Shown in pieces: positions 1 to 40,449 of a DNA stretch of 64,000 nucleotides. The first letter of the stretch is position 1, and every line of letters starts with the position of its first letter. Source of the stretch: an uncultured Phycisphaeraceae bacterium (GTDB taxonomy: Bacteria > Planctomycetota > Phycisphaerae > UBA1845); contig CAZGJA010000089.1 in assembly GCA_964526695.1 (NCBI GenBank), positions 52,694-116,693 on the forward strand. The letters run 5' to 3'. A program made the position numbers and the translations under genes. A model generated the notes under the pieces. The model saw nothing but the letters and a program-made list of their open reading frames with translations, searched no databases and was not told the origin of the DNA.

Positions 1-844
1 CCGCCTCAAGGCGGTGGCACGAACCGCCCGGCTGAAGCCGGCCCGGGACGACTCAGCACGATGCAAGTGCAAGCTTGGGATCGGCTGCGATCGGAGACAC
101 TCATCAATGGGCGGAGGCAGAATCAGGTGAGACGTTCTGCGGTTCTACATAGCCCCAAATCAGGCGTAAAGAAATGGCCTTTCCCCGCGTCGCGACCGCC
201 GCGTCGGCGGTGCACAGCGAGAACGGAGCGACCGCGGGGTCGCGCCAGCGGCGGCACGCCGCCGCATGCGCCTCACCCCCCAGCCGCATCGCCTCCACCC
301 CTCCCACAACCCGGCCCACGCCCTCCCCACTACGCAATCGGCCGCCTCGACCATAAGACCCCGGACGCTACTGCCCTGACGGTCGCGGCTCGGATCCGCA
401 CCGCTCCCTTACGGTCACGGCTCGGATAGGCGCCGCGCTCCCTCGCGGTCGCGGCCCGGCCAAGTGTTAGCATCAAGGCGGCACCACAATAGCCGTCGCC
501 ACAGGCGCGGTCCGGGGCGGCAGGTTCGAGCCGGCGGGTCGGTTCGCGGACGGATGCCCTCGGGTTTGCTCGCGGGTGGATGAGCGGAAGACCCCGCGGG
601 CTTCCATACCCCTCTGAATCACCCGTTCCGCGCGCACCGTTGACAACGCAGCCGCCTCCATTGAAAACGTCTTTCCGCGGATCGCCGCGGACCTGTGCGG
701 TGAATCCCGCGGTGAAGGCGGATGTACAAAACCGGGGATGTGGACGATGCATATTCAGGGGCGGCCTCGAGGGCGGGCGCGATGATCGCTTTCGCGGCCT
801 GCCGCGCGTCCTGGAACGGAGCCTGATCGGAGGAAGAGCACGAC

Positions 845-16648: not shown

Positions 16649-16675
16649 AGGCGGGCATCAGGCCCGCCTTTTTCA
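16649..16675 (+). terminator. Rho-independent terminator
   Basis: aggcgggc-atcag-gcccgcct stem-loop followed by TTTTT, about 50 nt after the stop at 16599. Confidence 0.7.
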
Positions 16676-18722: not shown

Positions 18723-19034
18723 TCCGCCGGAACGGACGCTGATCCGATCCCGCGCGTGGATGGACGGGCCGTTGTGCGCGGCACGCGCGGATGTTTGGGC
18801 GAAACGCGGTTCGGCCGCCCAACCGCTGCTGCGATTTCGGAGCCGCAGGCGCCGCGCCTGCGGCTCATTTTGTTTGCGCAAGAAAGGGTGTGGGCTACAC
18901 TCCGCATGGTCGAGAAGTCGTACCCGCAGTGCGGGCTACGCGCGTCTTGTCCAAAGCTGGAGTGTGCGTAGGGCGGGCCATGCCCGCCTCGTCACGAATC
19001 GGAGCAGGCGGCGGGATCAGCCCACGCCACGAGC

Positions 19035-32200: not shown

Positions 32201-32763
32201 ATTCGACGTTCGCCGATCAGATCGCCGAGCACGTTCGCTGCGCCCAGGCGCTGGTGCGGCAGGCGCCGACGCTTGCGGCGGTGATCGACCGGTTGATTCA
32301 GTGTTTCGACGCGGGCGGGCGCGTGTATCTGCTGGGCAACGGCGGCAGCGCCGCGGATGCGCAGCACATCGCGGCGGAACTGGTCGGGCGCTTCAAGCAG
32401 GATCGACGCCCCCTGCCCGCGGTGGCGCTGACGACGGACACATCGATCCTCACGGCGATCGCAAATGACCTCGGCGCGGAGACGTGCTTCTCGCGGCAGG
32501 TGGAGGCGCTGGTTCGCGCCGGCGACGTCGTCTGGGCGCTGAGCGTGTCAGGGAAGTCGCCGAACGTGATTCGCGCTTTGCGGAGCGCCAAGGCGCTCGG
32601 CGCGTGCGTCATCGGGTTCACCGGGCGCGGCGGCGGAGACTTCCCTTCAATCTGCGACGTCTGTCTGCGGGCCGAGCACGACGCCAGCGACCGGGTTCAG
32701 GAGACGCACCAGCTCGCGTATCATCTGATCTGCGAGGCCGTCGAACGGCGGTACGCCTCGTAA
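32197..32763 (+). CDS. gmhA: phosphoheptose isomerase (SIS domain)
   Basis: GGRVYLLGNGGSAADAQHIAAELVGRF and SVSGKSPNV SIS motifs. The only in-frame start near the N-terminus is TTG 32197, overlapping the hldE stop (TTGA); this start is uncertain. Confidence 0.85.
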   Translation: MNSTFADQIAEHVRCAQALVRQAPTLAAVIDRLIQCFDAGGRVYLLGNGGSAADAQHIAAELVGRFKQDRRPLPAVALTTDTSILTAIANDLGAETCFSRQVEALVRAGDVVWALSVSGKSPNVIRALRSAKALGACVIGFTGRGGGDFPSICDVCLRAEHDASDRVQETHQLAYHLICEAVERRYAS

Positions 32764-32809
32764 CGCGGCACACACACGAGAGGGACGTTGCCCCGCGCGA
32801 CGACGACTC

Positions 32810-33733
32810 ATGAACATCCTCATCACCGGATCGAGCGGACAGATCGGCACGAACCTCGCCCTGGCGCTGCTCGAGGGCGGGCACCGCGTGCTGGGCATCG
32901 ACAAACGCCCCAACACCTGGACGCCGCGCGTCGAGACCCTCCTGCTTGATCTGACCGCCGACGGGGAAGGGCGCTGGCCGAAGGGCCCGTTTGACGCCGT
33001 CGTCCACCTGGCGGCCAACGCCAAGGTGTTCGAGCTGGTCGAGCATCCGCGCCGGGCGCTGGACAACGTGCTGATGTTGTTCAACGTGCTGGATTACTGC
33101 CGGCGGGAGCGCTGCCCGATCATCTTCGGCAGCTCGCGCGAGGTGTACGGCGACATCCACCAGCACGTCACCGAGGAGGACTCCGCGGATTTCGTCGTGG
33201 CGGAAAGCCCGTACAGCGCGAGCAAGATTTCGGGCGAGGCCTTCATCTACTCGTATGCGCAATGCTACGAGCTGCCGTACCTGGTGTTTCGCTTCAGCAA
33301 CGTGTACGGGCGATACGACAACGACCTGGCGCGGATGGAGCGCGTGATCCCGCTGTTTCTTAAGCGCATCGCCGCGGGCGAGCCGATCGTGGTGTTCGGG
33401 CGGGAGAAGGTGTTCGACTTCACCTACATCGACGACTGCGTGGACGGCATTCTCGCGGGGATCGAGGCGCTGCGTGCCGGGCGCGTTTCGATGCAGACGA
33501 TCAACCTCGCGTGCGGGCAGGGGTCCACGCTGGTGGACCTCGTGAACATCCTGGCGCTGGCGCTGGGCAAGCCGGCGTTGGTCACTTATGAGCCGGCCCG
33601 CGTCGGCGAGGTGACGCGGTATGTGGCCGACATCAGCAAGGCGCGCGATCTGCTGGGCTACGCGCCAAAGTTTCCGCTGACGGCGGGGCTGCCGCGCTAC
33701 GTGGAATGGTCGCGGCAGACGGGCGCGATCTGA
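32810..33733 (+). CDS. NAD-dependent epimerase/dehydratase (extended SDR)
   Basis: MNILITGSSGQIGTNL Rossmann motif and a YSASK catalytic motif. Confidence 0.85.
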   Translation: MNILITGSSGQIGTNLALALLEGGHRVLGIDKRPNTWTPRVETLLLDLTADGEGRWPKGPFDAVVHLAANAKVFELVEHPRRALDNVLMLFNVLDYCRRERCPIIFGSSREVYGDIHQHVTEEDSADFVVAESPYSASKISGEAFIYSYAQCYELPYLVFRFSNVYGRYDNDLARMERVIPLFLKRIAAGEPIVVFGREKVFDFTYIDDCVDGILAGIEALRAGRVSMQTINLACGQGSTLVDLVNILALALGKPALVTYEPARVGEVTRYVADISKARDLLGYAPKFPLTAGLPRYVEWSRQTGAI

Positions 33734-33809
33734 GATGCCGCGCAAGGGATGCGCCCCTGCAGGGTGAGGCAGGTCTCCGACCTGCACATCATCATTGCTC
33801 TGACCCGGC

Positions 33810-33908
33810 GGGTGGCACGGTCTGGCGTACTCGCCAGGCCGTGGCGGATGAGGAATAGACGTTCATGCGCGCACGGCACGGGTCCGCTGCTGCGGACCCA
33901 TGCCACCC
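33810..33908 (+). repeat. REPIN/MITE-like doublet, 99 bp
   Basis: gggtggcacggtctggcgtactcgccaggccgtgg - 32-nt spacer - cacgggtccgctgctgcggacccatgccaccc. The ends are inverted repeats. Confidence 0.85.
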
Positions 33909-34141
33909 GGCGGCGCCGGCTAACGGAGGTGTTATCTCCGTGCGGCGTCGCCGCAAGGTGGCTCGGTGAAAAACAGCGTGCTTCCGGTTCCTGGCGTTGA
34001 AATGAGCAATGCAGCCGCGCTTGACGAGGGCCGACAGTGTTTCATATACTGCTGTCAGTGCCGCATGGGAGTTCTGTGCGGCAAACCGTCCTGGTCCCGT
34101 GGAAGCGAATTGGGAACCGGCGGAGTCTTTTCGGTGGCGTC

Positions 34142-34216
34142 ATGAGTTTTACCGGACACGCGCATCTTTTGGGTTGGTGGTGGTCCTGCTCGGACGGGCG
34201 GGGATCCTGCGCGTAG
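34142..34216 (+). CDS. trpL: candidate trp leader peptide (24 codons, three consecutive Trp codons)
   Basis: ATG 34142 ... TGG TGG TGG (34175-34183) ... TAG 34214-34216. Translates to MSFTGHAHLLGWWWSCSDGRGSCA. Lies directly upstream of a terminator and trpE. Confidence 0.55.
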   Translation: MSFTGHAHLLGWWWSCSDGRGSCA

Positions 34217-34244
34217 CGTAAGCGTGCCGGAATTGAAAACCCTG

Positions 34245-34280
34245 ACCCGTCGCAAATCGTGCGACGGGTTTTTTGTTTTT
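34245..34280 (+). terminator. intrinsic terminator / attenuator upstream of trpE
   Basis: A 10-bp perfect stem (acccgtcgca / tgcgacgggt), loop aatcg, then TTTTTGTTTTT. Ends 11 nt before the trpE ATG at 34292. Confidence 0.8.
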
Positions 34281-34291
34281 ATGGGCGGCGG

Positions 34292-35890
34292 ATGAACGAA
34301 ACGGCGGACAAGGTGCGATTCCTCGCGATTCGGCGCACGCTTTCCGGAGCGGCCGATGCGCAACGTCTTTTCGCGGCGTTGACGGACCACGGGCGCGCGC
34401 GAGGGGCCGTGCTACTGCAGTCGTCGGACAACATCCCCAAATATGGGGAGCGCAGCCTGGCTGCGGTGAGATCGAGCCTGATGCTGACCGGGCGGGAAGA
34501 AGCTCTGAGGTTGGTGGCGCTGGACGGGCGGGGGCGATGCCTGCTGCCGGTTCTTGAGAAGCGACTCGCGGGCGTTGTGGAAGGGCTGCGCCGCGAGGTG
34601 GATCGGGACGGCGCGCCGATGCTCACGGGCCGGATCACGCCCGATCTTCGGTCGGTGAGCGGGCGAGAGCGACCGTTTCGCCGAAACGCGATGGACGTCA
34701 TTCGAGCGCTCGCCTTCTGCTCTTCGCCGGAAGAGGACGCCGTCGTGCCAAGTCATGGTTTGTTCGGTGCGTTCGGCTACACGTTCGTTCACCAATATGA
34801 GTCCTTTGAGCGCAACCCCAGAGACGTGCTCGGCGATCCGGATTATTGTTTCTTTCTGGCGACGCGGATGTTCATCATTGACCATGCCGTGGGATCGACC
34901 CACGTGGTTTCCAGTGTTCCCATTGTTTCCGGCGCGGACCTGGCGCCGCTTCTTGTCGAGGCGGAGGAGGATGTGCGGCGTATGGCAGCGCTCGCCGAGC
35001 ATCCGTTGCAGGTGAATCGCGGTGTTTGGAGCGCGGGGGCGATTCAATCCGACACGCCTCGAAGCACGTATGTATCCAACGTGGAACGCATTCAGCGCGA
35101 CATCTATGCCGGGCGCGCGTTTCAGGTTGTGTATGGACGCATGCTCTCCGCGGATTTCATGGGATCGCCGTTTGACGTTTATGGCAGACTTAGTGAGATC
35201 AACCCGTCGCCCTACATGTTCTACTTCAATGACGGCGACGGCGTCCTGCTGGCCGCCTCCCCGGAGATGGCCGTCCGCGTCAGCCATGAGCCGGCGGGTC
35301 GCCGCGTGGAGTTGCGGCCGATCGCCGGAACCAAACCAAGGGGACGCATTCAGGGGAACATCCATCCGCTCACCGATGCGAAGTACGAGACGGCGCTGAA
35401 GATCGACCCAAAGGAGCTTGCCGAGCATACAATGCTCGTCGATCTGGCGCGCAACGACCTCGCCAGCATTTGCAAGCCGGGGACCACGCAGGTCGATGAG
35501 CCGTTTGTCGTCGAGAAGTACTCCCATGTGCAGCATCTGGTAAGCAATGTCAGCGGAATTCTGGCCGATGATCTTGATGCACTTCACGCTTATCTGGCGA
35601 CGATGAACATGGGGACGGTGACGGGCGCTCCGAAGCTCGAGGCCATGAAGATGATCAACGGATTGGAGGCGTCCAGTCGCGGCTATTTCGCAGGCGGCGT
35701 AGGATATGTTTTCCCTGACGGGCGCATGGACACGGCACTGGTGATCCGTGCGATCCGCTTCAAGCCAGGCAAGGCCCACATCCGCGCCGCGGCGGGCATT
35801 GTGGCGGACAGCATACCGGAGGCCGAATGGGAGGAGACGGAGAGCAAGGCGGCGGCATCTCTGCGTGTTCTGGGAGGCGATCTCGGGTAA
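34292..35890 (+). CDS. trpE: anthranilate synthase component I
   Basis: Chorismate-binding domain blocks (SPYMFYF, LAASPEMAVRV, IAGTKPRG, GAPKLEAMKMI, GYFAGGVGY). Confidence 0.92.
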   Translation: MNETADKVRFLAIRRTLSGAADAQRLFAALTDHGRARGAVLLQSSDNIPKYGERSLAAVRSSLMLTGREEALRLVALDGRGRCLLPVLEKRLAGVVEGLRREVDRDGAPMLTGRITPDLRSVSGRERPFRRNAMDVIRALAFCSSPEEDAVVPSHGLFGAFGYTFVHQYESFERNPRDVLGDPDYCFFLATRMFIIDHAVGSTHVVSSVPIVSGADLAPLLVEAEEDVRRMAALAEHPLQVNRGVWSAGAIQSDTPRSTYVSNVERIQRDIYAGRAFQVVYGRMLSADFMGSPFDVYGRLSEINPSPYMFYFNDGDGVLLAASPEMAVRVSHEPAGRRVELRPIAGTKPRGRIQGNIHPLTDAKYETALKIDPKELAEHTMLVDLARNDLASICKPGTTQVDEPFVVEKYSHVQHLVSNVSGILADDLDALHAYLATMNMGTVTGAPKLEAMKMINGLEASSRGYFAGGVGYVFPDGRMDTALVIRAIRFKPGKAHIRAAAGIVADSIPEAEWEETESKAAASLRVLGGDLG

Positions 35891-35896
35891 CCATTG

Positions 35897-36484
35897 ATGG
35901 GTGCAAGCTCACGCATTCTGTTCATTGATAACGAGGATTCCTTTGTTTACAACCTCGTGGACGCCTGCCGAAGTCTTGGGCATGAGGTGGACGTATTTCG
36001 ATGCGACTGGCCTGCGGCCGATGCGCAGCAGTACATACGGCAGTGCGGACCGCGTTTGCTGGTGCTTTCGCCCGGCCCTTGCGGGCCGCGCGATGCGCGG
36101 CTGTGCATGCAACTGCTGGCGTCCGCGCCGGTTGAGTTGCCGATCTTTGGCGTGTGCCTTGGGCATCAGTGCATTGTGGAGCATTTCGGGGGGCGCGTCG
36201 AGGCCACGGGAAAGCCCGCACATGGCAAGGCGGCGCTCATTCGTCACACTGGCGGACCGCTGTGGCGCGGAATTGAGAACCCGTTTCAGGCGGGGCGGTA
36301 TCATTCGCTGGCGGCATCGGTCGTGCCCGATGTATTGGAAGTGACGTCTTGGCTGGGCGAGATGCCGATGGCGGTGCAGCACAAGAGCCGGCCCGTGATT
36401 GGCGTGCAGTTTCACCCGGAGAGCGTTTTGACTCCGGCGGGGAACCAACTGTTGAGCAATGCGCTTGAAGTGTTGGGAGCCTGA
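35897..36484 (+). CDS. trpG: anthranilate synthase component II (glutamine amidotransferase)
   Basis: ILFIDNEDSFVYNL, GVCLGHQ (catalytic Cys) and GVQFHPES motifs. Confidence 0.92.
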   Translation: MGASSRILFIDNEDSFVYNLVDACRSLGHEVDVFRCDWPAADAQQYIRQCGPRLLVLSPGPCGPRDARLCMQLLASAPVELPIFGVCLGHQCIVEHFGGRVEATGKPAHGKAALIRHTGGPLWRGIENPFQAGRYHSLAASVVPDVLEVTSWLGEMPMAVQHKSRPVIGVQFHPESVLTPAGNQLLSNALEVLGA

Positions 36485-36562
36485 CGGAGAGGGCGCGACT
36501 TCGGGCACTGCGTTGTTGCCGGGTCGCGTCGAGTTGGCGCTGATGGAATTCAGGTACAGTGA

Positions 36563-37615
36563 GTGATTGATGTCATGGACGAGGCACTGGATCAACTTAT
36601 CAGCACGCTTGACCGAGGGCGCATCCTGCCCATCGCCGATGCCGCGCGGGCGATGATCGCCATTGCCGATGGGGAGGCGGACACGCCGACGATTGTGAGG
36701 TTCCTGCGCGCGTACAATCGCCGCCCGCCTGTGGTGCATGAGATGTCGGCGTTTGTGGAAGTGCTGCGCGAGCGGATGGTCGCGGTGCAAGCGCCGGCGG
36801 CGAACACCATCTGCAACTGCGGCACGGGCGGGGACGGGCGCGGCACCATCAATGTTTCCACGATCGCGGCGTTTGTCATTGCCGCGGCCGGGGTGCCTGT
36901 GGCCAAGCACGGCAACCGTTCCGTGTCGAGCCAATGCGGAAGCACGGACTGCCTTGCGGGCATGGGTGTGGCCGTCAGTCGTGAGCCGCAAACCGCGCAG
37001 CGCCTCCTGGAGGATCACCAATTGTGTTTCCTCAATGCGCCGGATTTTCATCCAGCCTTGCGCCATGCGTCCGCGGCGCGGCGCGAGCTGGCGGCCACAG
37101 GCGAAAGGAGTGTTTTCAATCTACTGGGACCGGTGCTCAATCCGGCTTCGGTCACGCGACAGACGATGGGCGTGTTTCATGCGGACATGCTTTTGACCAT
37201 CGCGCAGGTGCTTCTTCAGAGCGGCTCGCAAAGGGCGTATGTCGTGCATGGCGACGGGTATGATGAACTCAGCGTGACCGGAGCGTCGCGCATGGCCTTG
37301 GTGGATGGCGGCGGCATTTCCCTGCGAACCATCGTTCCTGAGGACTTCCGGATCCGCCGCGCGGACGCCGGCGAGCTGGTCGGCGGCGATGCCGCGACCA
37401 ACGCTCGTCTGGCGGAGGGCATCCTGCGGGGAAGCCAGGATGGGGCGATGGCGGATGTCGTTCTGCTGAACGCGGCGGCGGGCATCAGCGCGGGCGCCCT
37501 GGACGAGTTGGACCTTCAGGATGCGCTGGAGGTGGCGCGGGAGGCGCTGGCGTCGGGGCGTGCATACCGGAAACTTGAAGATATGAGAAAGGCGGCGCCG
37601 GTTCATGCTTCATGA
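36563..37615 (+). CDS. trpD: anthranilate phosphoribosyltransferase
   Basis: CGTGGDGRGTINVST, VAKHGNRSVSS and NLLGPVLNPA motifs. Alternative start at ATG 36575. Confidence 0.9.
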   Translation: MIDVMDEALDQLISTLDRGRILPIADAARAMIAIADGEADTPTIVRFLRAYNRRPPVVHEMSAFVEVLRERMVAVQAPAANTICNCGTGGDGRGTINVSTIAAFVIAAAGVPVAKHGNRSVSSQCGSTDCLAGMGVAVSREPQTAQRLLEDHQLCFLNAPDFHPALRHASAARRELAATGERSVFNLLGPVLNPASVTRQTMGVFHADMLLTIAQVLLQSGSQRAYVVHGDGYDELSVTGASRMALVDGGGISLRTIVPEDFRIRRADAGELVGGDAATNARLAEGILRGSQDGAMADVVLLNAAAGISAGALDELDLQDALEVAREALASGRAYRKLEDMRKAAPVHAS

Positions 37616-38393
37616 GATTCTCGCCAACAAGCGCCGCGAGATCGAGTGTCTGGTCGGGGCAAATCCACTGGAGCCGTTGGTCAGTTGCCGCGATTTCCGC
37701 GAGGCCATCTCCCGCCCGCCGTTGTCCTTTATTGCCGAGGTCAAACGTCGCTCGCCTTCCGCCGGTGTTCTGGCTGCTTCGCTGAGTCCGGTAGCCCAGG
37801 CGCTGAAGTATGTGGAAGGAGGCGCGGCCGCCATTTCGGTCTTGACGGACGCTGCTTATTTTGGAGGAAGCTTCGAGGATTTGGACACGGTGGCGCGGCA
37901 GGTGAGCGTTCCGGTCCTCTGCAAGGATTTCATTATTGATGAGCGGCAAGTGCGGCGGGCGAGAGCGGCCGGTGCGGATGCCTGCCTGCTCATTGTGGCG
38001 GTATTGTCTGACAGCGTGTTGCGCGGGTTGATGGAGCACTGCCGGCGATATGGTATGTCCCCTCTGGTTGAGGTGCATAATGAGCGAGAATTGGAATCCG
38101 CGGTGCACTGCGGCGCTGAGGTGATCGGCGTCAACAACCGAGATCTGACTTCGATGAAAATCGACTTAAGCACAGTGAAGCGCCTGGCGCCGCGGGTGCC
38201 GGACTCGTGTGTGCTGGTGGCGGAATCGGGTTACACAAGCGCGGCGGACATTGCAGACCTTCCGCCGCGAGTCAATGCGGTGTTGGCGGGCACCGCGCTG
38301 ATGCGGCAGGCCGATCCCGCGGCGACGCTGGTGGAATGGGGGCGGATGGCCCGGAGCGTGAGAGAGGGAGATGGAAGGAGCCGTGCGTCATGA
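37605..38393 (+). CDS. trpC: indole-3-glycerol phosphate synthase
   Basis: [25 protein letters not shown] and GVNNRDL motifs. 11-nt overlap with trpD. Confidence 0.9.
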
Positions 38394-39586
38394 TGATGCC
38401 TGTCCCGTCGGACTACGAGCGTGGGTTGGGTCGCTTCGGCGGGCAATACGTGCCGGAGCCGCTGGTGGCGCCGCTGACGGAGATTCGGCGCGCATTCCTG
38501 CGGTTCCGCGACGACGCGGGATTCAACGAGAAACTCGGGCATCTGCTGCGTCACTATGCAGGCCGCCCGACGCCCTTGTATTTTTCGCCGAAGCTTTCGG
38601 CGCGCACGGGTTGCCGCGTTTATCTCAAAAGGGAGGACTTGCTGCACCTGGGGGCGCACAAGACCAACAACACCATTGGTCAGGGCTTGCTCGCGCATAG
38701 GATGGGCAAGACGCGCCTCATCGCGGAAACGGGCGCGGGGCAGCACGGAGTCGCCACGGCCATGGCAGGGGCGCTGTTCGGCATACCCACGGAAGTGTTC
38801 ATGGGCAGCGTCGATATCGAGCGGCAGGCCATGAACGTGTTTCGCATGAAGCTGATGGGGGCGACGGTCCGTCCGGTGAACAGCGGCAGCGCGACGCTGA
38901 AGGACGCGATCAACGAGGCCCTGCGGGACTGGATCGCCCGGGCGGCGGACACCTATTATTTGTTCGGCACGGCGGCGGGCCCGGAGCCGTTTCCGGAAAT
39001 GGTCACGCATTTTCAATCCGTGATCGGGCGCGAGGCGCGAGCGCAGATATTGGAAGCGGAGGGGCGACTGCCGCACACCGTGATCGCGTGCGTCGGCGGC
39101 GGGAGCAACGCCATTGGCGTATTTCACGCATTTCTCAAGGATGCCGAGGTGCAACTGATCGGGGCCGAGGCCGGCGGCGACGGTGCAAAGCACGGCGCGT
39201 CGCTGTCCGCCGGATCGCCGGGCGTCTTTCATGGAATGCACTCGTACTTCCTGCAAGATGGAGACGGGCAGATCGCGGAGGCGCACAGCGTGGCCGCGGG
39301 CCTGGACTACCCCGGCGTGGGTCCGCTGCACAGCGCGCTGCACGAATCGGGTCGGGCGAGGTACGTGCCCGTGCGCGACGCCGAGGCGTTGGAGGCGTTT
39401 CATTGGCTCGCCCGGGAAGAGGGCATTCTGCCGGCATTGGAATCCGCGCACGCGATCGCGCTGACAGTGCGGATGGCGCAGGAGTTTCCGCCCAATGCCA
39501 TCGTAATCGTCAATCTATCAGGGCGGGGAGATAAGGACTTGCACACGGTTATGAAGTCGCAGAAGCCGAACGGGGCGGGCGTATGA
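38390..39586 (+). CDS. trpB: tryptophan synthase beta chain
   Basis: [26 protein letters not shown] and [10 protein letters not shown] motifs. ATG 38390 overlaps the trpC stop (ATGA). The upstream part of track ORF 38207 was rejected. Confidence 0.95.
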
Positions 39587-40449
39587 CCTCAAGACCCGAT
39601 GCAATAACCGACCCGGCTGCAAAGGGAGGGATCGAAACGACAATGCGGTTCCACCGACTGTGGAATAAAGGTGAGTCGAAGGTCGGCGCGTTCATGCCGT
39701 TTTTCATGCTCGGGGATCCGACGCCGGCGCGGAGCCTGGAGTTGATCCGCGGCGCGCTGGATGAGGGCGCGGACGCGCTGGAGCTGGGCATCCCGTTTTC
39801 GGATCCGATTGCCGACGGGCCCGTGATTCATGCATCCGCGCAGCGTGCCGCCCGGGCCGGCGCGGATGTTCGAACGTGCCTGGACCTGATCGCCGACATT
39901 CGTAAGTTCAGCGACGCGCCGATCGGGCTGCTGGTGTATTACAACCTGATTCACCGCCGGGGCGTGGAGGCGTTCTGCAAGGACGCGGGCGCGGCGGGGG
40001 CGGATGCGCTGCTGGCGGCGGATGTGCCGTTTGATCGCGCGGGCGATCTGCCGGCGGCGATGGAAACGCACGGGCTGGGCAGCGTCTATCTGTGCAGCCA
40101 GAACACACCGGAGGATCGTGCGGCGCGTATTCTGCAAGCCTCGACGGCCTACACCTATGCGGTCGGCGTGATGGGGACGACGGGCGCGCGAGAGGACCTC
40201 GCGCCGGCCACGCGCGAGTTCGTCTTGCGTCTTCGAAAGCTGTCGCAGCGGCCTTTTGTGGTGGGTTTCGGCGTCAGCCGGCCGGAACATGCAGTGGAGA
40301 TTCTGCGGCTCGGCGCGGACGGGGTGATCGTGGGCAGCGCGCTGATCCGCATGATCGAGCGGCACGGCGAGGACCATGCCGCCGCGGTGCGCGACATCCG
40401 GGCGTTTGTCCGCGAGGTCAAGACGGCCAGGGCGGTCTGCTACGGCTGA
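39583..40449 (+). CDS. trpA: tryptophan synthase alpha chain
   Basis: [21 protein letters not shown] motif. ATG overlaps the trpB stop (ATGA). An alternative internal start at 39643 is possible. Confidence 0.9.

Follow-up and report, generated by a model that had tools for sequence, protein, structure and literature searches.

We found that the trp operon of an uncultured Phycisphaeraceae bacterium is very probably preceded by a ribosome-mediated (leader-peptide) transcription attenuator, which would set trpEGDCBA expression by the supply of charged tRNA-Trp. In the window, i.e. the whole 64,000-nucleotide stretch of DNA that was analysed, and in 17 further leaders we observed the sequence elements of this device, how they are conserved and covary, the two folds that exclude each other and the geometry of the parts. 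The genes downstream of the leader make the amino acid that would be sensed. NCBIfam matches define an operon trpE-G-D-C-B-A at 34292-40449 on the plus strand, with trpE at 34292-35890 (also matching Pfam Chorismate_bind), trpG at 35894-36484, trpD at 36563-37615, trpC at 37605-38393, trpB in a long frame at 38207-39586 and trpA at 39583-40449. The cluster does not include trpF. The long trpB frame overlaps trpC, and since only its residues 69-451 match TrpB, the true trpB start probably lies near 38400. No clear Shine-Dalgarno sequence precedes trpE.

The leader peptide ORF (trpL-like; 34142-34216, plus strand) has 24 codons, encodes MSFTGHAHLLGWWWSCSDGRGSCA and ends in the stop codon TAG at 34214-34216. 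Its codons 12-14 (34175-34183, plus strand) are three consecutive Trp codons, TGG TGG TGG, and are the candidate regulatory codons. The string TGGTGGTGG alone occurs four times in the 64-kb window, so the triplet run by itself proves little. We therefore considered the run in its context, by scanning both strands of the 64 kb for short ORFs that contain WW, or longer runs of ten other amino acids, and are followed by a terminator. The combination of a short ORF, a single-amino-acid run and a terminator was unique to the locus upstream of trpE. A weak Shine-Dalgarno-like GGTGG lies upstream of the leader ATG. The leader frame is open from 34037 onward, and long open frames are common in high-GC DNA. 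In the closest relative, a Phycisphaerales MAG (L001), the orthologous leader ORF reads MSFTGHAHRLGWWWSCSGGRGLCA.

A second short ORF of 26 codons, MGVLCGKPSWSRGSELGTGGVFSVAS, lies out of frame at 34065-34145. It starts 14 nt past the -10 box; through its terminal ATGA it overlaps the leader ATG at 34142. We rejected it as the true leader because L001 preserves neither this frame nor the single Trp codon in it; there, the GTG that corresponds to the start of this ORF is in frame with the leader instead. Such an ORF might bring ribosomes to the leader, unless its presence is due to chance.

Upstream of the leader we identified a sigma-70-like promoter at 34021-34050 on the plus strand, consisting of TTGACG (34021-34026), an 18-nt spacer and TATACT (34045-34050). 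It matches the consensus at 10/12 positions, is the sole promoter-like match within 32500-36500 and predicts a transcription start at about 34057. The preceding gene, which encodes a sugar epimerase/dehydratase, ends at 33733, about 290 nt upstream of the promoter. The promoter arrangement in L001 is identical to that in the window. Reading by eye, we saw the pattern TTGAC(N)-17/18-TA(N)(N)(N)T ahead of the leader ORF in 12 relatives as well as in the window. The window and L001 have about 85 nt of untranslated sequence before the leader ORF. Folding of 34055-34295 placed a 5'-proximal hairpin at 34059-34083 (plus strand) in this stretch; its stem is kept in L001, and among the leaders it is present only in these two. 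Most relatives have only 6-10 nt between the end of the -10 box and the leader start codon (L002 at ~840-875, L003 at ~2795-2832, L004 at ~1100-1136, and L161, L163, L165 and L170). Given this short distance, the leader ORF of most relatives is probably translated from a leaderless or near-leaderless mRNA.

The terminator directly precedes trpE. Its stem pairs ACCCGTCGCA (34245-34254) with TGCGACGGGT (34260-34269) over a perfect 10 bp around the loop AATCG, which the terminator scan extended to 11 bp, of which 7 are G-C, by counting G34244-U34270. The 3' arm is followed by the T-run TTTTTGTTTTT (34270-34280), which ends 11 nt before the trpE ATG at 34292. Together, the 3' arm and the T-run form region 4 (34260-34280, plus strand). 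Region 3 (34240-34254, plus strand) contains the terminator 5' arm (34245-34254) as well as the bases that pair with region 2 (34240-34251). The hairpin alone folds at -19.1 kcal/mol. An earlier note on this DNA, made from the letters alone, had reported the 24-codon ORF with its three TGG codons and stop, the 28 nt between that stop and the stem, the stem itself, the T-run and the 11 nt to the trpE ATG; on re-reading 33700-34500, all of these coordinates and distances were correct. The terminator is one of three strong intrinsic terminators in the whole window. The other two, at 16649-16669 and 18840-18866, are also on the plus strand, and the terminator scan found no strong canonical intrinsic terminator on the minus strand of the 64 kb. 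Canonical terminators seem to be rare in the source genome. A 4-codon ORF (ATG GGC GGC GGA TGA, 34281-34295) starts directly past the T-run, and the ATGA at its end includes the trpE ATG (34292). L001 has the identical ORF.

We then asked whether the terminator 5' arm has another partner upstream. For this, nascent RNA was folded up to just before the terminator 3' arm, with a ribosome-sized stretch forced to be single-stranded. These folds revealed region 2, the antiterminator 5' strand GACGGGCGGGG (34193-34203, plus strand), which lies at an offset of 18 nt, counted from the first base of the Trp run, and pairs with CCCUG-A-CCCGUC (34240-34251) over 11 bp with one bulge. The earlier note had proposed that CGGACGGG at 34191-34198 can pair with the left arm of the terminator. 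Such an alternative pairing does exist there, although the helix is longer than the note had stated and spans 34193-34203. The note had also suggested folding the region for mutually exclusive structures and had taken the lack of any alternative antiterminator as grounds for refutation; the ribosome-masked nascent folds yielded a mutually exclusive antiterminator and terminator, the former being the 11-bp alternative helix. With a ribosome on the first UGG (A site), the antiterminator of the window ties up 7 bases of the 11-nt 5' arm (34244-34254). Once the ribosome is placed at the stop codon, the region-2 helix no longer forms. When the ribosome was masked on the first Trp codon (W1), 6-12 bases of the terminator 5' arm were paired upstream in 18/18 leaders. 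The antiterminator encloses an inner hairpin, which in the window lies at 34205-34231 (plus strand) and includes the leader stop codon. Folding predicts such an enclosed hairpin for every leader, and its sequence is not conserved. It could conceivably serve as an RNA polymerase pause hairpin.

Full-length equilibrium folds of the window leader contain the terminator only, with modest z-scores of -1.7 and -2.2. The terminator fold stays the MFE structure when a stalled ribosome is included (-36.3 versus -30.7 kcal/mol). Since the terminator fold is more stable at equilibrium, antitermination would have to be kinetic. In E. coli trp, the terminator is likewise more stable than the antiterminator and the choice is kinetic. 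The nascent fold of the window without a ribosome already contains the antiterminator, and an untranslated leader is therefore predicted to read through rather than to super-attenuate. The stop codon of the window and L001 lies 11 nt beyond region 2, where a terminating ribosome would cover only part of that region (in the window, about its 3' half). The stop codons of L002-L004 lie inside region 2, and a ribosome at the stop covers it fully. A conserved hairpin between regions 1 and 2 was looked for across the leader alignment with RNAalifold and was not found, as the consensus consists of the terminator only. A weak UCCUGCUC/GGGCGGGG pairing that the window could form is not conserved.

To place the window leader in a family, we used its TrpE. 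The protein is 88% identical to that of the Phycisphaerales MAG (L001), 64-69% identical to several proteins from Phycisphaerae MAGs or Logan assemblies and 47-57% identical to further Planctomycetota MAG proteins. The comparative set comprises 18 leaders (the window, L001, L002, L003, L004, L009a, L009b, L161, L163, L164, L165, L167, L168a, L168b, L169a, L169b, L170 and L095), taken from the DNA upstream of related trpE genes (47-88% TrpE identity), mostly in Phycisphaerae/Planctomycetota MAGs. Extra loci were obtained by protein search and contig look-up. A metagenome scan with TrpE gave no new close relative with an intact upstream region, and L086, L100 and L119 are N-terminally truncated. 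Pairwise leader DNA identity is only 50-65%, apart from three close pairs or trios, among them window/L001 and L167/L095/L168a. At this level of divergence, features shared by the leaders reflect selection and not recent common descent.

Each of the 18 leaders combines a short, Trp-containing ORF with a terminator downstream of it. The Trp codons occur as WW, WWW, W-x-W or a single W. Measured from the start codon, the Trp run begins at exactly 33 nt in 10/18 leaders and at 30 or 36 nt in five more, and the key Trp codons occupy codons 11-13 in 15/18. The spacing between stop codon and terminator is 23-35 nt in 17/18. The peptides are 16-26 aa long, except for two longer frames (34 and 74 aa) in second tandem units. 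Examples are MMHLVANPVRRWWRFGPGG, MTVAVCKSLFRWWWCNPSGG, MMHLPDMSARRWWQPDSCG, MTLNGTNNSYFWWCVLPGRSPAG, MRILGNTAWRGWWGPGRTPGGGSASR, (V)CVGFDIHNSGWWWYCCRRWRLRA and MRIIHRRAWYWWYSRNGGPPVW, as well as MFGYNLATDHGWRLTFAVGRGRRA, which has a single Trp at codon 12. Conservation of the peptides is confined to the Trp codons and a Gly-rich end, the latter dictated by region 2. At the RNA level, the alignment shows conserved sequence only in the Trp codons, region 2 and the terminator. The earlier note had called for an alignment of relatives, and the 17 further leaders do conserve the mini-ORF with its frame and Trp codons, together with both hairpins.

Several relatives show variations on this layout. 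Three of them, L009 (2487-2612 and 2646-2931), L169 (947-1073 and 1142-1306) and L168 (640-771 and 1076-1185), carry tandem units of Trp leader and terminator before trpE. The ORF between the tandem units of L168 (called at 722-1000) has no Pfam match. The TrpE start called for L169 (1201) lies within the second leader, which probably gives the annotated protein P0023 an N-terminus that extends too far. In a subfamily of leaders (L167 54-122, L095 73-141, L168 ~649-717 and L169 947-1018), Trp is the last sense codon in addition to an internal WW(W), with endings such as ...GGPPVW*, ...GGLSVW* and ...SPAW*. A Pro-Pro-x-Trp-stop ending might slow termination of translation. In L002, the 5' end of a 23S rRNA gene (positions 1-296, minus strand; Rfam LSU_rRNA_bacteria, 233.6 bits) lies about 570 nt from the trp leader.

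We next determined how well the antiterminator is supported across the family. With RNAduplex, the terminator 5' arm was compared with the upstream stretch, against 300 dinucleotide shuffles. The best complement of the 5' arm is a G-rich segment whose offset from the first base of W1 is 14-23 nt (median 17) in 18/18 leaders, just beyond the expected leading edge of a ribosome stalled at W1. In the window alone, the complementarity of regions 2 and 3 is not significant against the shuffles (p = 0.21), because this stretch is G+C-rich. The case for the antiterminator therefore rests on the family, in which the complementarity reaches a Fisher p of 2.6e-8 for all 18 leaders and 1.7e-6 for the 15 non-redundant ones. 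Trp leaders from Colwellia and Corynebacterium served as controls from the Gammaproteobacteria and Actinobacteria, groups in which the leader-peptide mechanism is established. In the same pipeline these gave region-2 offsets of 17-21 nt, the same geometry as the 18 leaders.

Covariation was counted on a MAFFT alignment of the 18 leaders (A1). In the terminator, 97.5% of cells are paired and four pairs show double changes, a covariation score reached by 0/500 shuffles. The antiterminator, held in one fixed register, is 77% paired, compared to 32-49% when slid by 1-3 columns, and contains 11 double-change cells, a number reached by 16/500 shuffles. Two of its positions are compensatory, and its position is fixed: columns 62:135 exchange GC (9), AU (4) and GU (3), and columns 67:130 exchange CG (6) and UA (6). 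As several leaders use slightly shifted registers, the fixed-register count is conservative.

From these features we infer the stalling of the ribosome, its coupling in time to transcription and a response to Trp in vivo, which would proceed as follows. Transcription would start at the promoter at 34021-34050, and a ribosome would translate the 24-codon leader with RNA polymerase ahead of it. When Trp is scarce, the ribosome would stall with one UGG of 34175-34183 in its A site. Its leading edge would then lie about 13 nt downstream, just short of region 2 (34193-34203), leaving region 2 to pair with region 3 (34240-34251) once the latter is made. This pairing would sequester the terminator 5' arm and the polymerase would read into trpE. 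When Trp is plentiful, the ribosome would run toward the stop codon at 34214 and cover or disrupt region 2. Region 3 would then pair with region 4 (34260-34269), and the hairpin with its U-run would terminate transcription 11 nt before trpE.

The conservation pattern also bears on whether the leader acts mainly in trans. The terminated RNA of about 220 nt could work as an sRNA, and/or the 24-aa peptide could be functional, with cis control of trpE secondary. Two studies document trans functions of both RNA and peptide for an alphaproteobacterial trp attenuator (PMC6614838, PMC7298713), and the extra structured 5' stretch of the window and L001, with its hairpin at 34059-34083, is unneeded by the attenuation model. 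However, the peptides are not conserved outside the Trp codons and the Gly-rich end that region 2 dictates, and neither is the RNA outside the Trp codons, region 2 and the terminator. Moreover, a trans role would add to cis attenuation and not replace it. We thus regard a primarily trans-acting leader as very unlikely.

Slightly less likely still is a two-signal form of attenuation in the Phycisphaerae family, in which stalling at hungry UGG codons would be combined with a ribosome at the leader end that promotes termination and is held there, in the manner of TnaC, by free Trp. As there is no 1:2 'protector' hairpin, the dwell of the ribosome on region 2 would in that case be the sole permitter of termination; the read-through predicted as the default for an untranslated leader agrees with this. 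If true, the element would read both tRNA-Trp charging and free Trp.

A purely TnaC-like device, in which the nascent peptide senses free Trp and arrest at the leader stop at high Trp holds the ribosome over region 2 and so enforces termination, appears more improbable again. The Trp codons would then matter as peptide residues and not as hungry codons. E. coli TnaC has 24 residues with Trp at position 12. The window peptide likewise has 24 residues with Trp at position 12, four leaders (L167, L095, L168a and L169a) end in ...PPVW-stop or ...SPAW-stop, and arrest at the stop gives the correct regulatory sign. An arrest peptide of the TnaC type has a conserved Trp at a fixed spacing from a C-terminal Pro-stop. 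In our leaders, however, the stop follows the first Trp codon at a variable distance of 6 to 15 codons, and neither TnaC-like Asp or Pro positions nor a Pro-stop is conserved. The distance that is conserved is that from the Trp codons to region 2, as stalling on the codons predicts.

Finally, a chance juxtaposition, with the terminator serving an upstream transcript and the WWW ORF being one of the open frames that arise at random where G+C is high, could draw on the four copies of TGGTGGTGG, the frame open from 34037 and the antiterminator of the window that is not individually significant, but it is scarcely credible given that the upstream gene already ends at 33733 with a promoter-like site between it and the leader, that the layout of ORF, Trp codons, region 2 and terminator is the sole such combination in 64 kb and recurs in 17 other leaders despite 50-65% DNA identity, and that the related loci, with 47-88% TrpE identity and different flanking genes, are not assembly duplicates.

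Returning to leader-peptide attenuation, we compared the window element with known systems. A scan of the whole 64-kb window at Rfam gathering thresholds returned no family, T-box included. In a permissive scan, the Trp_leader family (RF00513) matched 34169-34277 over model positions 1-100 (25.2 bits, E = 0.009), below its gathering threshold of 41 bits, and the only other matches within 33700-34400 were weak and at chance level. Full-length Trp_leader matches below threshold were also found in L170 (36.4 bits), L163 (28.1), L001 (26.9) and L009b (26.5). The window element therefore has the layout of an enterobacterial leader and is not a member of Trp_leader by the Rfam criterion. As in E. 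coli and enterobacterial trpL, a short ORF has consecutive Trp codons at about codons 10-14, a segment about 17-20 nt past them pairs with the terminator 5' arm, and the terminator lies immediately before trpE. In contrast to E. coli trpL, which has two Trp codons in a 14-aa peptide, the window leader has three Trp codons in a 24-aa peptide. Its stop codon lies downstream of region 2 and not before it, its antiterminator encloses an inner hairpin, about 85 nt of extra 5' sequence precede its leader ORF, and the predicted read-through of the untranslated leader is the opposite of 'superattenuation'. The leaders also differ from E. coli trpL by having no conserved 1:2 hairpin. The earlier note's description of an E. 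coli-type attenuator architecture thus holds for the ORF, antiterminator, terminator and geometry but not for this hairpin. The 1:2 'protector' hairpin is a feature of the enterobacterial model and is not known to be one of the mechanism class as a whole.

The closest parallels in other high-GC genomes are the trp leaders of Actinobacteria, known from a comparative analysis that covers Corynebacterium glutamicum and Streptomyces venezuelae (PMC1262725). These share WWW leader peptides with the window. The Corynebacterium leaders among our collected loci encode MKKLSTVNLWWWRA and MKQNTLNAQWWWLA and have a region-2 offset of 20-21 nt. Leaderless leader ORFs have been reported for Corynebacterium, and the near-leaderless ORFs suggested for most Phycisphaerae relatives resemble these, whereas the window itself is not near-leaderless. 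The actinobacterial and Phycisphaerae leaders differ in that they have no sequence similarity and the peptides of the Phycisphaerae set are longer (16-26 aa). The Sinorhizobium meliloti trpL likewise combines a WWW leader peptide with an attenuator before trpE(G). It differs in that trans functions of the attenuator RNA (rnTrpL) and peptide (peTrpL) have been shown there (PMC6614838, PMC7298713). T-box and TRAP attenuation of trp genes in Firmicutes is similar in that a Trp-dependent choice between terminator and antiterminator is made before trp genes, whereas sensing in the window would occur via a translated ORF. Inspection by eye revealed no (G/U)AG triplet repeats of the TRAP-site type.

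No Trp leader was found upstream of Planctomycetota loci with other TrpE types (L012, L057, L060, L061, L067 and L071); a seventh such locus, L062, has too little upstream sequence to judge. Outside the Phycisphaerae, the closest full-length relatives of the window TrpE (41-45% identity) come from Neomarinimicrobiota/Fidelibacterota and from MAGs labelled as archaeal (Woesearchaeota, Nanoarchaeota, Iainarchaeum and 'Methanosarcinales'), and other Planctomycetota are absent from them. This suggests horizontal transfer of the window TrpE type. Trp leaders with terminators that look independent precede trpE in Ignavibacteriales, Zixibacteria, Fidelibacterota, Neomarinimicrobiota and Bacteroidota-like metagenome contigs. 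Like the window, these have a promoter, a WW(W) ORF, a terminator and trpE in this order, and some accompany the same TrpE subfamily (43-45% identity). Unlike the Phycisphaerae leaders, they are AT-rich, and the sequences are unrelated. Evidently, leader-peptide attenuation is a widespread class. Surveys after 2010 have widened the known range of leader-peptide systems. Until then, according to Naville and Gautheret 2010 (PMC2965389), such systems had been shown only in Proteobacteria and Actinobacteria. A non-exhaustive literature search turned up no trp attenuator or leader peptide from Planctomycetes or Phycisphaerae, in agreement with the earlier note, whose author was not aware of such attenuators having been described for high-GC Planctomycetota-like lineages.

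Our results would extend classical leader-peptide attenuation to the Planctomycetota (class Phycisphaerae), with minor architectural differences. To our knowledge, gene regulation in this phylum is almost unstudied. As a mechanism the attenuator offers nothing new, unless a distinct function emerges for the tandem units or for the lack of region 1. For annotation, the gain consists of 18 leader ORFs and attenuators that gene callers miss or that push trpE starts too far upstream, as in P0023 of L169, whose called start lies inside the second leader. Trp leaders also accompany trpE in several other little-studied phyla. For the biology of these bacteria, an attenuator of this kind would imply that transcription and translation are coupled, and that canonical intrinsic terminators work in them, even though they are as rare as three in 64 kb.
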